Assembly (NCBI GenBank): GCA_054600435.1
Contig: BAAIJX010000011.1
Span: 124,001 to 188,000, forward strand
DNA: 64,000 nt
Source of the DNA: Neophaeotheca triangularis
Lineage: Eukaryota
Direction of reading: 5' to 3'
The position numbers and the translations under genes were made by a program. This document shows, one piece after another, positions 8,119 through 13,340 of this stretch; position 1 is the first letter of the stretch, and every line of letters begins with the position of its first letter. The notes below the pieces were generated by a model. It was not told where the DNA came from. It searched no databases and saw only the letters and a program-made list of their open reading frames with translations.

Positions 8119-8786
8119 TCAAGCAGTTGCAGTGTTGCCCTGCGTGTCAGCAACCTGCTCAATTTCAATCTTGGGCATGGCAGCGCCGGTGCCGCCCAAA
8201 TCGGTGGCCTTGGCCTTGGGGTTCTTGGTGTAGTAGTTGCTGATGGCGGACTTGATGGCGTCTTCCGCAAGCATGGAGCAGTGCACTGCAGTCGACGCAT
8301 TAGCTATACTGATACTTCCCCGAGACATGGATGACTATCAAACTTACGCTTGACAGGCGGCAAAGAAAGCTCCTTGGCAATCTCGGTGTTCCTGATCCTA
8401 CCAGCCTGTTCCAGAGTCATACCCCGCACGAGCTCCGTCAAATAGCTGCTGCTGGCAATGGCCGACCCGCAGCCAAAGGTCTTGAACTTGACGTCTGAGA
8501 TGGTGTTGTCCTTGGGGTCGACCTTGATCTGCAGCTTCATGACGTCGCCGCACGCCGGTGCTCCCACGAGTCCTGTGCCGACGTCTTCGGCGTTCTTGCC
8601 CATGGATCCGACATTTCGGGGGTTGTTGTAGTGGTCGAGGACCTTTTCATGGTAGCTGCGGCGGAGAGGAGCGGTGGTGACCGCAGGGGCGAAGCTGCCG
8701 GCAAAGGAGGTGGTGGTCGGACGGGTCGCCGTCGCCATGGCCTGCGAGGCGCGGGCGGGCGCAGTGCTCAATACTCTTCTGAACAT
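8119..8786 (-). CDS. ISU1: Mitochondrial Fe-S cluster scaffold IscU/Isu1; intron 8286-8347
   Basis: YHEKVLDHYNNPRNVG, GAPACGDVMKLQI, FKTFGCGSAIASSS. Splicing restores LPPVK-LHCSMLAEDAI. Arg/Ala/Thr-rich presequence. Confidence 0.97.
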
Positions 8787-9090
8787 TTTGCTGTAGTTTC
8801 TCTGGTTTCCTTTGATGGGTGTGAAGATGGAGCTTTGATGATTAGGTTTGTTGTGGTTGAAGTGTGGTCGATGAAGGGCAGTCGAGTGAATGTTTCGTCG
8901 AAGTAGAGAGCCATGACATCGATTGCCAAGAGCTCGCTTCTTTGTTGCCTCTTTTGGCCGACGTCGGCTTTTACATCACATGCACGCTCATTGGAGGACG
9001 TTACTGCGGAAAGTGGGACAGTACCTAGGTATTATACTGATCGCTACTCCCGACGTGTCCAGAGTCCAGACGACGCATTATTATGACTGA

Positions 9091-11181
9091 TCAGCTCAAC
9101 AACACCCTAATCTCATCACCAGTCCTTGGGAAAACGTTCCTCAGAGAACCAGCACCGTCTTCACCCTCATCATCATCCTCCGCTCTCTCCCTCACTTCAT
9201 CAGCTTGCACGATTAGCCCTTCAATCTCCTCAAAGTCCTCGCAGAACCTTTCAGCAGCATTCTCACAGACTCTCCTCACGAGCGTCTTATCCTGCAACTC
9301 CTTCAACCACTCTCGAGCATCCTCGGTAGCAGTAGGGAGGAAAGCATCCAGATTCGCCGCAATCTTGGCGAGTTGGGCGGGGTCTTTGTAGGTGCTGGAC
9401 AGGTGATCGGTGTTTGAAATGGAGTCGACTAGCGTTTTAAGTCCAGATTGTGCGAGCAACCAGTCGTGCATATCGTCTGTGAGGTCTTGGGCGTGGTCTT
9501 TGATCTGAGGCTGCAAGGAGTTGGCTCGAGCGGCAAACCCATTTTTGCTCAGGACGTCTTTGATGGTGAGGAGGTAGTTGAGGGCAAATATATGCGAGTT
9601 TGGGGGATTCAGGCGGTTCGTCAAATTGGCGCAGGCCGATAGGTAAGGGTCGAGGGCTTCGCGCATAATGGGTTCGAAGGCTTCTGCGCGCTCAGATCGC
9701 GACATTGGACCGGAGCTGGTCTCGTGTGATTGCATCAGGGTTTGGATAGTGTTGAGCGCTTCAAGGAGAAAGTCTGGCGGAGCGAATTCCGTGGGTGTGA
9801 TGGAGGTTTCTGCACGCAAAGACTCAATATTGTCTCTGATCACCAAGCGGAACGACCGAAGCGCTGTGTCTGCGATTGGCCGTAGCACGTTGAGTAGCGA
9901 AGACTGCGAGCCGAGTAACGAAGTAAATATTCCGTCGTAAAATGTGACCAAGTTCGAAATCTTGTAAGCAAGCACAGCATCCTCATGACTCTGAATCACT
10001 TGTTCTATGCGCTGTTTCAACTGTCGAAAGACGCCAGAGAGGTCACGGTCAACAAGTTCGTTGAGCGCTTTGCGACCGTCGAAGACAGGCTGTGCATCTT
10101 CATCCGAGTCGCGTGTCCAAGGCTCGCTTTCAATCCCAGCTTGGATGCTTTTCGCGATCTCGTCACCTTCAGAGATGAACAGCACTTCTAGTGCTTCCCG
10201 TTCAGAGACTGTCGCAGAGTGCGCCCAGGCTAGCATGTCACCGACATAACGCAGTGGCTCATGAGCAGACAATTCAATGGCTTTGCCCATGACTGGATGG
10301 TTCGGATCGACAGGAGCCCCAGTAAGCGCAGCGTAGAAGTTGTCGGAGAGTATTCGTTCTCGCGCTTCCGCAAAGAAGTCTAGACAGTTTTGGAACAGTG
10401 CAGGTCTCTCGGCAAGGACCCTCAGAGCTCGTCTGATGGCAGTACTGATCTGTGGATTCTCCAGATCCAAAGTCTTGAATTCGCGCTGCACCCATCTGTA
10501 CAGTTTTTGAAACGCGGCATTGAGTTGCTTCGAACTCTGTTCCAAAATCTCTAATCCCAGTCGCTGGTTCTCTGAGCCAAGAAGCACTTGCGAGTCCTCA
10601 TGTATTCTTTTTACCCGTGTCAGGACACGGAAGAAGTCATCGTTGACAGGCTCAACTGTAGAGCTCAACGAGGCAAGATCAGTGTCAGAAACAACAAAGT
10701 GCGCCTTGAAGGCATCGAGCAGCTGCTGCTTTGTCTCGATCTGTTGACGATCTTTGAGGATACTGCCCGCCTCTTCGAGCATAGGTCCAGCTTCTCGGTT
10801 CGACGCAGTGATGTGTTTCCTCATCTCAGCACAACTGGTATTGAGATCGGCAATGACCTTGCCAATGCGCTTGAGTTGAGCAGCGACAGCGCCGAAGTCC
10901 TGAACTATCTCGCCGTTGCATTGGATTAATTCCTGCTGAACATCTAAACGGAGATTCCGGCGCGTTTCTGCGGTATTGGCAGTCTTCCTCTCATCTAGCA
11001 CGGACAAAGCATCTCTAATCTCCAAGTCGGCGTAGGACGCTGAAAGGACATTGGTGACCCTGCTTTGTATTGCGGTAGATCTGGGCGCAGTGGCCGGCGG
11101 GCTCAAAGGATTGGGAGAGGCTGCTTGGGTTCCATTCGCTCCTGGAGACTTGATACGGTCGGGGAAATAGGAGGCTGCCAT
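9091..11181 (-). CDS. COG6: Conserved oligomeric Golgi complex subunit 6
   Basis: NTAETRRNLRLDV, AAFQKLYRWVQREF and IELSAHEPLRYVGDMLAWAHS are typical of COG6. First ATG at 11181. Confidence 0.92.
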   Translation of the reverse strand: MAASYFPDRIKSPGANGTQAASPNPLSPPATAPRSTAIQSRVTNVLSASYADLEIRDALSVLDERKTANTAETRRNLRLDVQQELIQCNGEIVQDFGAVAAQLKRIGKVIADLNTSCAEMRKHITASNREAGPMLEEAGSILKDRQQIETKQQLLDAFKAHFVVSDTDLASLSSTVEPVNDDFFRVLTRVKRIHEDSQVLLGSENQRLGLEILEQSSKQLNAAFQKLYRWVQREFKTLDLENPQISTAIRRALRVLAERPALFQNCLDFFAEARERILSDNFYAALTGAPVDPNHPVMGKAIELSAHEPLRYVGDMLAWAHSATVSEREALEVLFISEGDEIAKSIQAGIESEPWTRDSDEDAQPVFDGRKALNELVDRDLSGVFRQLKQRIEQVIQSHEDAVLAYKISNLVTFYDGIFTSLLGSQSSLLNVLRPIADTALRSFRLVIRDNIESLRAETSITPTEFAPPDFLLEALNTIQTLMQSHETSSGPMSRSERAEAFEPIMREALDPYLSACANLTNRLNPPNSHIFALNYLLTIKDVLSKNGFAARANSLQPQIKDHAQDLTDDMHDWLLAQSGLKTLVDSISNTDHLSSTYKDPAQLAKIAANLDAFLPTATEDAREWLKELQDKTLVRRVCENAAERFCEDFEEIEGLIVQADEVRERAEDDDEGEDGAGSLRNVFPRTGDEIRVLLS

Positions 11182-12070
11182 GCCTGACGGCGGAGGAGTG
11201 CTTCCGTAGCCTCCAATGTTCAAAGTCCAAAGCCAGGGCAGTATTGAGTTCCACGTGTCGAGTCTAGTCCGAAAGACGACAAGGCAGGGTTCCAAGGTTA
11301 CCTTACTATGCTGACAGCAGTCAACTAGTCGTCACTTTGGAGCCGTAGTCTCTTGGTGTTCGCCACTTGCACACAATGTTCCAGGGTTTGTCGAAAAGGT
11401 CAAGTACAAGCATTCGCCTTCGCTGCATGGAAGCCGAAGCAACGCTCAGGCACTTTGCCGACCCCCTGGGGTCTGAAGGGAAGCTTTGACATGGGCTGCC
11501 AATCATGCCGGAACCGCCTTTCGATTGCTGTTGATCGATACCCTCGAATAAACGTGTGACTGCGGATATTTCCTAGCAGTGAGAAATGTGATGGCAGTGT
11601 GGCCTTCACTACACGTATAACTAATGTACCGGTATTTCTCTATTCACTTGTACTTGCTTGCTAGGCGCCGCCGACTGCACAGCCTCCCGTTACAGCGCCT
11701 CGTTGCCTAGCGCGGGGCAATAATGAGGGACAGCACCTGGGCAGTCCCCTACATTATTATCCATATTACTTCTCCCCCAAGTCCTGCAAACATTCGCCAA
11801 CTCTACCTACCTGAATTACAGAATGCACCAACTCATCTAAGTACTTGATCCATCTCTTCGTCCATCCTCTCCTCTTTCCTCACCAACTCGCCTCGATAAC
11901 TCCTTACCCCGTCACGGACTTGTTGCGTCAGCTCTCAACAACAGCCTCGCCAAGGTTATCTAGGTAGCGAGTCCAGTGGATTGGGCTTCCGTACTAATTG
12001 TACCACCAAATTCGCGCGGATCCAAACGAGCAGGGTTAGCTAGGCAGAGGGTGGAGAGCAGCTGCCCACT

Positions 12071-13340
12071 ATGGGCAAGTCGTAAGTCACTTTCCCTTTC
12101 ACCATCCGTCTTTGTCTGCCAGGCGGAAGGAGACGGATGGAAGAGCGCAAGAGGAGGAGCAAACGAAACGCTCCATCGCTTTGCGCGCCCTCAACCATGA
12201 GATCTACTTGGATCATCTGGCAGCACGAAACTCGAAGAGAGCACATCCCGATCCGCAAGCGACCTTGACCATGGCTACGCCAGACCCTCCGAACCACACC
12301 AATCCCCTCCACCTCGATCAGTTAGCCGTTCAAGCCCACGCCACCGACTACACAATAGCAGCAGAAACCGCAGTGTCGGATCAAAATGCCAGTGAGGAGG
12401 AACCATACCATCCAGACGAGGCAATGCATCGGCGAGGCTCTATCAATACCGCCAGACGACGACCTTCTCATGTCCCCCGAGTCAATTCCGAGAGCTATCC
12501 TGCGTTCCGAAAAAAGCAAAAGGCAGCGATGCGCATACGTTTGGAGGAGCTCAAGTCCCAGTTGCACAGGGCGATGGCGGTGTTGGGGGTGGAGTTTTGC
12601 GAGAATGGCAATGGGTTGGAGCTAACATTCGACCGCGATAGGCAGAGCAAGCTGTCGCAGCAAGAATTGCAAGATCTACAAAAAGCGACACATTTCGACA
12701 AGAAGGAGTTGCAACAATGGTACAAGGGTATGGATCTAGCCCATCCTCAGCGCATCTCTCGCGTCACGGACTTCTAACAGAACACTCTTCACTCAGGCTT
12801 TCTCAAGGACTGTCCCTCAGGAATGCTTACCAAAGCCGAGTTTCAAAAAATCTACAAGCAATTCTTCCCTTTTGGAGATCCTTCGAGTTTCGCAGACTAT
12901 GTGTTTAACGTCTTCGATACGGACAAGAGCGGGAGTATAGATTTCAAAGAGTTCATTTGCGCGCTGAGCGTAACGAGCAGAGGCAAGATGGAGGATAAAC
13001 TCGACTGGGCGTTCCAGCTGTACGACATTGACGGCGATGGCAAGATTAGTTACGACGAGATGCTGCAGATTGTAGAGGCGATCTACAAGATGGTGAGACT
13101 ATGAGAACATAGCAAGGTACATGAGGGGGCAGGGAACCGTTGCTAACCCACCCCTAACAGGTCGGCTCCATGGTCAAACTACCCGAAGACGAAGACACAC
13201 CGGAAAAGCGGGTCCGCAAGATCTTCCGCATGATGGACAAAGACGAGAACGGCAGCCTAGACATGGCGGAATTCAAAGAAGGATCGAAGCGCGACGAGAC
13301 CATTGTCTCCGCCCTATCGCTCTACGACGGCTTGGTATAG
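12071..13340 (+). CDS. NCS1: Neuronal calcium sensor/frequenin; exons 12071-12081, 12642-12727, 12797-13092, 13161-13340
   Basis: Spliced product [41 protein letters not shown]..., EF-hands [24 protein letters not shown] and [12 protein letters not shown], end [10 protein letters not shown] myristoylation start. All introns are GT-AG. Confidence 0.96.

Follow-up and report, generated by a model that had tools for sequence, protein, structure and literature searches.

The 64,000-nucleotide (nt) stretch of Neophaeotheca triangularis DNA analysed here (contig BAAIJX010000011.1, positions 124,001 to 188,000; hereafter the window, with position 1 its first letter) carries on its forward strand the gene of the calcium sensor NCS1, and this locus probably gives rise to two proteins. 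The short form, whose decisive splicing step is supported by RNA, is the canonical sensor of 190 amino acids, obtained when a mini-exon encoding the start of the MGKS sequence is spliced over intron 1 to exon 2. The long form would begin at a second start codon inside this intron, ATG 12271, and would be read unspliced into exon 2, giving a protein of ~310 amino acids in which a 124-residue extension replaces the MGKS myristoylation start. That a second NCS1 isoform exists, with the extension as its conserved and translated exon, we consider probable, and at the level of the protein family nearly certain. In the mechanism we propose, the long mRNA would be transcribed from a start inside intron 1, a helix of the extension would bind intramolecularly to the target groove of the EF-hand core, and the long form would be a soluble, self-occupied sensor, autoinhibited or differently targeted, which might be freed by phosphorylation.

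Conservation of the intron-encoded extension

The frame of exon 2 is open from 12040 to 12777, and all 186 codons of intron 1 are free of stops. A preliminary description of the window, made from the sequence alone, had recognized this openness but placed its beginning at 12112, which is too far downstream. Its remark that the first intron is unusually long was borne out (560 nt, ~8 times the length of introns 2 and 3, which measure 69 and 68 nt), and the motifs it pointed to are all present in the sequence: ATG 12271 in the context ACCATGG, an RRGS and an RRPS motif, and a CAG at 12120-12122 whose use as an acceptor would remove an in-frame intron of 41 nt and continue MGKS into 173 intron codons (MGKS-RKETDG...). 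By itself, the open frame is unusual but not decisive, as 55 of 5000 dinucleotide shuffles of intron 1 (~1%) had a forward frame that was equally open. The codon composition of the intron frame is coding-like, with a score of 0.173 against 0.205 +/- 0.072 for coding windows and -0.278 off frame; we set this score aside as evidence because it is equally high in the non-conserved part, 12124-12270, and in the conserved one.

The case for translation comes from comparison. A phmmer search of 1.84 billion representative proteins, with the 173-residue read-through peptide of intron 1 (P0001) as the query, returned eight matches at E <= 0.001: a near-identical sequence (P0002, 97% identity), one from a related species (P0003, 61-63%) and six distant ones (33-51%; E = 4.7e-5 to 6.1e-4). 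All eight are open reading frame (ORF) calls on genomic contigs, and seven of them, including five of the six distant ones, continue in frame into NCS1 exon 2 before entering unrelated read-through of intron 2. The block they share reads YPDE … RRxS … ARxRPxxxPR..SxSYPAFKxKQ..ALKIG…KSTG…LT. One call, P0006, ends right after the conserved L-T and ahead of exon 2, where a stop, a frameshift or the end of the contig is possible. No longer protein was found at E <= 0.01 when such proteins were sought with the window peptide alone; they were recovered later by a profile search, which yielded 1037 proteins at E <= 0.001. Many of these are presumably ordinary NCS1 proteins caught through exon 2; all 120 matches listed carry the extension block. 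One of the ORF calls, P0114 (152 amino acids, extension plus exon 2), bears the name 'phosphoribosyl-AMP cyclohydrolase', which looks like a mis-transferred name.

In the family of 122 sequences, the core motif A-R-x-R-P-x-x-x-P-R is found in 121. By a strict pattern, and with the window included, the core motif of 119 of the 122 shares its frame with exon 2, which follows at a distance of 59-64 residues; two of the remaining three have single-residue variants of exon 2, and the third is P0006. The window has the core motif followed by S-x-S-Y-P-x-F-x-x-K-Q, 64 residues ahead of QSKLSQQEL, and keeps all 15 residues that are invariant in a nine-sequence alignment. Across the conserved block, the frame is intact and free of insertions and deletions (indels) among the window, P0002 (97%) and P0003 (61-63%). 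The extension matched no Pfam family, its profile retrieved nothing from the PDB sequences at E <= 10, and a search of the ESM Atlas with it gave no usable match.

Among the matches listed were 15 NCBI gene models of 260-300 amino acids, named 'Calcium-binding protein NCS-1' or 'neuronal calcium sensor 1', from Pseudocercospora, Cercospora, Sphaerulina, Lecanosticta, Zymoseptoria, Hortaea, Friedmanniomyces, Elasticomyces, Vermiconidia and Cladosporium; the four genera checked for taxonomy fall in the Mycosphaerellales and Cladosporiales (Dothideomycetidae). Examples are the models of Cercospora beticola (292 amino acids), Pseudocercospora eumusae (289), Zymoseptoria brevis (285), Hortaea werneckii (260-269) and Cladosporium fusiforme (287). 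They share the architecture of the long form predicted from the window: an extension made up of ARxRPxxxPR, the SxSYPAFKxKQ helix and the LT hairpin passes directly into QSKLSQQEL and the EF-hand core. They differ from our reading in being automatic models without stated evidence that give the long form as the sole product, and the extension of the window is longer than theirs (124 versus ~80-115 residues). Most begin M-x-D-T-P..KVHDIYPD, and four Hortaea models begin further in. None of the annotated long models examined has the MGKS start, although genomic loci carry it. The canonical myristoylated protein is thus unannotated in the Mycosphaerellales and Cladosporiales models examined (P0010, P0031, P0033 etc.).

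The DNA of related loci was collected by scanning metagenome contigs with an alignment restricted to the extension (A3), which gave 16 loci, two of them duplicates (L002 of L001, and L016 of L014). Fourteen of the 16 carry, upstream of the extension, a mini-exon ATGGGNAAR(TC/AG) followed by a GT donor, and thus the two starts coexist; those without it are L010, whose contig begins inside the extension, and L013. Intron 1 measures 525-595 nt in ten related loci (nine distinct) and 616 nt in L012. When 12 distinct sequences, the window included, were compared in a codon alignment, the proportion of non-synonymous differences was below that of synonymous ones (pN < pS) in 66 of 66 pairs. The ratio of the corresponding substitution rates (dN/dS) for the extension was 0.17-0.63 in 58 pairs, while the other eight, each involving the window, were synonymously saturated; pairs with the window gave 0.29-0.63 or were saturated. 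In five phylogenetically separate pairs, differences in the extension at codon positions 1, 2 and 3 numbered 81/70/153 (chi-square 40.1, p = 1.9e-9). Four of the five pairs also contain the region from mini-exon to ATG, where the counts were 86/74/87 (p = 0.53). Indels told the same story in a close group of six loci: run lengths were multiples of three in 18 of 18 cases in the extension, in 23 of 110 in the upstream stretch, in 20 of 89 in the 5' untranslated region (UTR) and in 1 of 49 in intron 2, a contrast that is clear even though pairwise runs are non-independent events. Mean identity within this group was 0.97 for exon 2, 0.83 for the extension, 0.75 for the upstream stretch, 0.72 for the 5' UTR and 0.65 for intron 2.

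Together, the dN/dS values, the excess of third-position changes and the indels in multiples of three exclude a chance or non-coding origin of the frame for the family. From the purifying selection seen across Mycosphaerellales and Cladosporiales we infer that the extension is translated somewhere in this clade; in the window's own lineage, constraint was judged on protein comparisons. The proposal of the preliminary description, that intron 1 conceals coding sequence which would yield a second NCS1 isoform, has thereby gained strong comparative support from homologues, dN/dS, indels and codon periodicity.

The same comparisons indicate where the long form begins. Conservation at the protein level sets in at the Met of an M-x-D-T-P head. 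Each of the 14 loci (12 distinct) with both mini-exon and extension has a stop in the exon 2 frame, 1-38 codons ahead of this conserved ATG. ATG 12271 of the window (ACCATGG; M-A-T-P-D…) aligns with this family start, in keeping with the earlier suggestion that it could open a non-myristoylated form; a protein that lacks the MGKS start is not N-myristoylated. The full head pattern, M-x-D-T-P ... KVHDIYPD, is matched in 72 of 122 sequences, and the window has M-A-T-P-D and, ~45 residues on, PYHPDE. Since relatives have an in-frame stop ahead of the conserved ATG, the stretch 12123-12270 appears to be open in the window by chance. We accordingly place the proposed alternative first coding exon, which encodes the N-terminal extension, at 12271..12641 on the forward strand (124 codons including the junction codon 12640-12642, contiguous with exon 2), on the strength of the phmmer and profile matches and of dN/dS < 1, third-position excess and indels in multiples of three among relatives. 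The long form read from it would comprise ~310 amino acids without the MGKS start.

The canonical form and possible sources of a long mRNA

The RNA data consisted of assembled contigs from four runs (X1-X4), of which X1 is a polyA metatranscriptome and X4 is probably DNA; contigs of this kind omit rare variants, and their depth of ~3 is too low to reveal a minor isoform. They establish the canonical form. The NCS1 start codon at 12071 opens 11 coding nt (M-G-K and the first two bases, TC, of Ser4), which form the mini-exon ATGGGCAAGTC (12071..12081) with the MGKS myristoylation start; the donor GTAAGT comes next, at 12082. In the short mRNA, exon 1 (11884..12081) comprises this mini-exon and the 5' UTR as far as the contigs reach: X1 record 1 covers 11884-12056, and X1 record 2 and X3 record 7 end at 12081, joined to 12642. 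This 12081^12642 joint, found in contigs from two studies (X1 and X3), skips the 560 nt of intron 1 (12082..12641, phase 2), which has GT..AG ends; its acceptor AG is 12640-12641, and exon 2 opens G|CAG AGC AAG. The resulting MGKS|QSK start fits M-G-x-x-x-S, the consensus for N-myristoylation.

Further downstream, exon 2 (12642..12727), common to both forms and supported by RNA joints and sequence, is followed by intron 2 (12728..12796, 69 nt; joint in X1 and X3, with GT..AG ends when the cut is shifted one base to the right), exon 3 with EF-hands (12797..13092; RNA contigs), intron 3 (13093..13160, 68 nt; joint in X1 and X2) and the coding part of exon 4 (13161..13340; RNA contigs), which ends with the stop TAG at 13338-13340; all of these lie on the forward strand. 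The RNA-supported exons of 11 + 86 + 296 + 180 nt make up 190 codons plus stop, Pfam EF-hand_1 is matched on exon 3 (3e-19) and exon 4 (2.1e-6), and the core sequence is nearly identical to database proteins named NCS-1. The canonical 190-amino-acid sensor is therefore made by splicing the mini-exon over the 560-nt intron to exon 2.

X4 covers 12974-13227, on the side of exon 3 and intron 3, and is uninformative on intron 1. Contigs of X2 and X3 that match 13012-13046 alone (35 nt) and are loose at both ends represent EF-hand loops of other organisms. Intron positions vary within the clade: some lineages lack the intron at IYKM|VGS and have one after AEFK, and intron 2 is stop-free and in frame (17-25 codons) in several relatives (P0058, P0084, P0113 and L001/L002). 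Upstream, across an intergenic region of ~740 nt, lies the divergent gene of COG6, the conserved oligomeric Golgi complex subunit 6 (9094-11331, reverse strand; Pfam 1.5e-152), and beyond it an ORF for a NifU-like/ISU scaffold (8307-8975, reverse strand; 1.2e-41).

How the long mRNA would arise is best approached through locus L013, a 1401-nt contig from a metagenome collection in which the extension is contiguous with exons 2, 3 and 4 and all introns are missing; the other loci and ORF calls that extend as far as intron 2 all have it. Because it is intron-less, L013 is most simply read as a long-form contig derived from complementary DNA (cDNA). Its sequence starts 437 nt ahead of exon 2 and lacks the mini-exon; it includes ~400 nt of 3' UTR but no poly(A) tail. 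Its 5' end fits a transcription start inside intron 1, though truncation could also explain it. On balance, the long mRNA may well start inside intron 1, an assessment to which we attach even weight for and against; retention of intron 1 and use of a proximal acceptor, taken together, are a somewhat weaker possibility as its source.

Two elements of the intron bear on this question. A pyrimidine-rich, acceptor-like motif (12106..12122, forward strand) ends in the CAG singled out by the preliminary description. It might serve splicing, as a proximal 3' acceptor, or transcription, as a core-promoter element of the long form. Its family version, CCGTTTGTCTGCAG, is found exactly or with one to two changes and with its AG in five of ten relatives; the AG is lost in two, and the motif is absent from three. 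The copy in the window has three inserted bases, and the equivalent in L001 is at 2781-2794. Together with a CT-rich tract the motif lies 25-60 nt into intron 1 and is kept between lineages whose introns are otherwise unalignable, and an upstream ATG in the context GCATGG or GGATGG recurs 2-17 nt after it. The second element is an out-of-frame upstream ORF of 43 codons (12137..12268, forward strand), whose stop lies 2 nt before ATG 12271. In L013, the stop of an upstream ORF (35-124) overlaps the candidate start (ATGA). Such adjoining stops, in the window and in L013, make a control by termination and reinitiation possible, as far as sequence can indicate. A scan of 11600-12700 for bacterial-type promoters and terminators gave no promoter-like site, but its model is not applicable to a fungus.

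Architecture of the extension and alternative explanations

The extension is composed of a disordered acidic head, an RRxS kinase-type site, the invariant ARxRPxxxPR motif and an amphipathic helix followed by a hairpin. AlphaFold2 was run on the window extension plus exon 2 with the 122-sequence alignment. Residues 1-60 were of low confidence. Just upstream of the conserved block, the sequence R-R-G-S (12430..12441, forward strand) fits the consensus of cyclic AMP (cAMP)-dependent protein kinase (PKA); the preliminary description had listed this site, and it aligns with a basic-basic-x-S/T site that 88 of the 122 family members have no more than 25 residues ahead of the core motif. This suggests control by a kinase, which by the consensus might be of the PKA type. 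The basic-proline motif A-R-x-R-P-x-x-x-P-R (12451..12480, forward strand) contains A61, R62, R64, P65 and P69, invariant in the 122-sequence alignment, and has a predicted local distance difference test score (pLDDT) of ~80. The predicted amphipathic helix (12496..12576, forward strand; residues 76-102, S-x-S-Y-P-A-F-x-x-K-Q...) reaches a pLDDT of 85-92. Immediately ahead of exon 2, a beta-hairpin is predicted at residues 107-120 (12589..12630, forward strand; strands 107-112 and 115-120, pLDDT 77-86), in which L118 and T119 are near-invariant. A likeness of the helix-hairpin model to MADS-box folds was taken as chance, as the best Foldseek match against the PDB had E = 0.66.

Contact between the extension and the sensor core was modelled on the Cercospora protein P0033, with residues 1-105 as extension and 106-292 as core, in three ESMFold2 complex runs and three controls. 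The median score was 0.70 (runs 0.71, 0.70 and 0.01), and the best control scored 0.02; the pLDDT of the partner was 36-54, and runs shared at least 50% of contacts. The same mark was attained by 51 of 78 solved complexes and by 2 of 108 mismatched pairs. On the extension side, the interface covers residues 51-98 and is centred on the helix 62-83, on which the family-invariant Y, F, A, L and I sit. On the core side it involves W132, F136, I153, F157, F187, L191, W205, L209, I230, Y231, I254, I281 and L285 (minus 102 for canonical numbering), residues that we take to line the hydrophobic target-binding groove. We rate intramolecular docking of the helix in this groove as quite possible, though slightly short of an even chance; the model suggests, without showing it, that the long form is self-occupied.

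Several observations weigh against the two-protein reading or parts of it. The species of the window has yielded no long-form RNA, in that no contig of the four runs, at a depth of ~3, lies within 12082-12641. P0003, from the nearest other species, has Leu at the position of ATG 12271, with Met 17 residues upstream and 24 downstream. No other member of the set is as divergent as the window extension, which shares 34-50% identity with the rest and carries an insertion of ~35 residues after its start. Between mini-exon and conserved ATG, each locus has two to four upstream ATGs, which are not depleted and whose peptides are non-conserved; this argues against simple scanning from far upstream, and a leader that contained these ATGs would be translated less readily. 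The cDNA status of L013 is deduced from its missing introns, which a processed gene copy would equally lack. Database ORF calls are ascertained for openness, which biases counts of open frames but leaves the dN/dS and indel tests unaffected. As for docking, one of the three complex runs scored 0.01, full-length AlphaFold2 modelling of P0033 with 16 sequences gave a mean pLDDT of 57 and was unusable, and the favourable result may be partly memory because helix-in-groove complexes of neuronal calcium sensor (NCS) proteins have often been solved.

These points bear differently on the alternatives. That the open frame is due to chance or is a conserved non-coding control element, the long database proteins being artefacts of gene prediction that missed the 11-nt exon, is extremely improbable. 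Gene predictors do miss tiny exons, the only transcripts seen remove the whole intron, and the 55 equally open shuffles and the uniform codon score would fit; such an origin is contradicted by amino-acid conservation down to 33-51% identity at a fixed spacing to exon 2, by dN/dS of 0.17-0.63, by a third-position excess that stops at the flank, by indels that are all multiples of three, and by the conservation of start codon and N-terminal motif. Of the outcomes that the preliminary description had set against its own proposal, one was observed, as the long intron alone is seen in use and intronic contigs are absent; the other was not, as orthologous introns are free of stops and frameshifts in the conserved part. 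It is less far-fetched, but still improbable, that the extension functions in the clade and is a decaying relic in the window's lineage, where the short form alone would be made. The divergence of the window copy, its loss of the consensus features ALKIG and KSTG, the start Met missing from P0003, the higher or saturated dN/dS of window pairs and the lack of long-form RNA speak for decay. The retention of all 15 invariant residues, the frame kept intact and without indels over the conserved block in the window, P0002 and P0003, and the confident prediction of helix and hairpin on the window's own sequence speak against it.

Two further alternatives concern the mRNA. The preliminary description had favoured removal of a 41-nt intron (12082-12122), which would fuse MGKS to 173 intron-encoded residues and create a myristoylated long NCS1. 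Its arithmetic is correct in a frame that is open from 12040, and the AG that ends the pyrimidine-rich motif is kept in half of the relatives; we nevertheless hold this model to be very improbable. The conserved extension comprises 124 codons, preceded in all 14 loci by the stop described above, and the equivalent of 12123-12270 lacks codon periodicity and has mostly indels other than multiples of three. In the five relatives that keep the AG, its use as an acceptor would let the MGKS frame end after 24-82 codons, before reaching the frame of the extension, and the RNA contigs, which contain 12081^12642, lack a 12081^12123 joint. Alternatively, the same coding exon might be expressed without any internal promoter, either from a retained intron 1 with reinitiation or by use of the proximal acceptor 12122 with an upstream ORF in the MGKS frame. 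Retention would turn the canonical ATG into a 4-codon upstream ORF (ATG GGC AAG TCG TAA, the TAA being supplied by the donor), an arrangement, TC|GTAAG, that occurs in 10 of 14 mini-exon loci (the other four use AG|GT), and reinitiation is efficient after very short upstream ORFs. Such a mechanism would also fit the placing of upstream ORF stops, 2 nt ahead of ATG 12271 in the window and overlapping the ATG in L013, and the conservation of the acceptor-like motif. On the other hand, the further upstream ATGs, two to four per locus, open ORFs of 2-147 codons, some of which overlap the main ATG, and L013 starts inside the intron without the mini-exon, although it is possibly a truncated contig. 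We regard expression without an internal promoter as rather unlikely, and prefer a coding exon for the extension that is served by a start inside intron 1.

Comparison with known sensors and significance

The long form proposed here has parallels among NCS proteins, whose hydrophobic groove is described in PMC3271974 as the binding site for helices of Pik1, Kv4 and receptors. According to the same source, KChIP4a has an alternative N-terminal KIS helix that occupies the groove of the protein itself and thereby displaces Kv4. Long NCS1 would resemble KChIP4a and the other KChIP isoforms portrayed there in that an alternative N-terminal exon replaces a lipidated start and a helix lies, here by prediction, in the protein's own groove. 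Unlike KChIP, the protein considered here is the fungal NCS1 orthologue, and its extension of ~100 residues includes a hairpin and a basic motif and has no sequence or fold match in the PDB. In the Frq1-Pik1 complex of yeast frequenin with residues 121-175 of PI (phosphatidylinositol) 4-kinase, target helices run along the large hydrophobic groove (PMC3271974). The predicted cis contacts of the extension likewise span both halves of this groove, but the Frq1-Pik1 complex is intermolecular.

In variant 2 of human NCS-1, the first 22 residues are replaced by four (MATI), as reported in PMC5004852; as in the fungal long form, an alternative N-terminus thereby removes the MGKS myristoylation start. 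In contrast to the human variant, for which that report, in the portion consulted, describes no added domain, the fungal form would gain a conserved domain of ~100-124 residues and keep exon 2 whole. A literature search whose coverage did not extend to subscription journals turned up no report of a long NCS1 or of a pair of NCS1 isoforms in fungi, nor any paper on NCS-1 in Zymoseptoria or the Dothideomycetes, and the extension is apparently an undescribed, clade-specific domain born inside an intron.

The parallels invite a more speculative proposal, which we put forward as on the unlikely side: that a Dothideomycete clade (Mycosphaerellales, Cladosporiales and the lineage of the window) uses the single NCS1 locus as a two-output switch, in which the upstream promoter, with the 560-nt splice, would deliver the membrane-bound, myristoylated form and the intronic start a soluble, groove-plugged form. 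As the plugging helix is flanked by the invariant basic-proline motif and the RRxS site, a kinase of the cAMP/PKA type could open or close the sensor. If so, fungi would have evolved autoinhibition of the KChIP4a kind independently, and cAMP signalling would meet calcium/PI 4-kinase signalling directly at the long form.

To our knowledge, fungal NCS1 (frequenin) has been regarded as a single, 190-residue myristoylated regulator of PI 4-kinase and of calcium tolerance. If the two-protein reading is true, a group with major crop pathogens and extremophiles makes a conserved, non-lipidated and possibly self-inhibited NCS1 as well, and knock-outs and tagging in such fungi have hit two proteins together. 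Public gene models of Mycosphaerellales and Cladosporiales, which give the long form alone and miss the 11-nt exon, would then need revision to two isoforms. With the extension, a natural ligand of known sequence would be at hand for the NCS1 groove, along with a candidate phospho-switch, and the history of the extension would be a clean case of a new domain that arose in an intron and was selected alongside the ancestral start.

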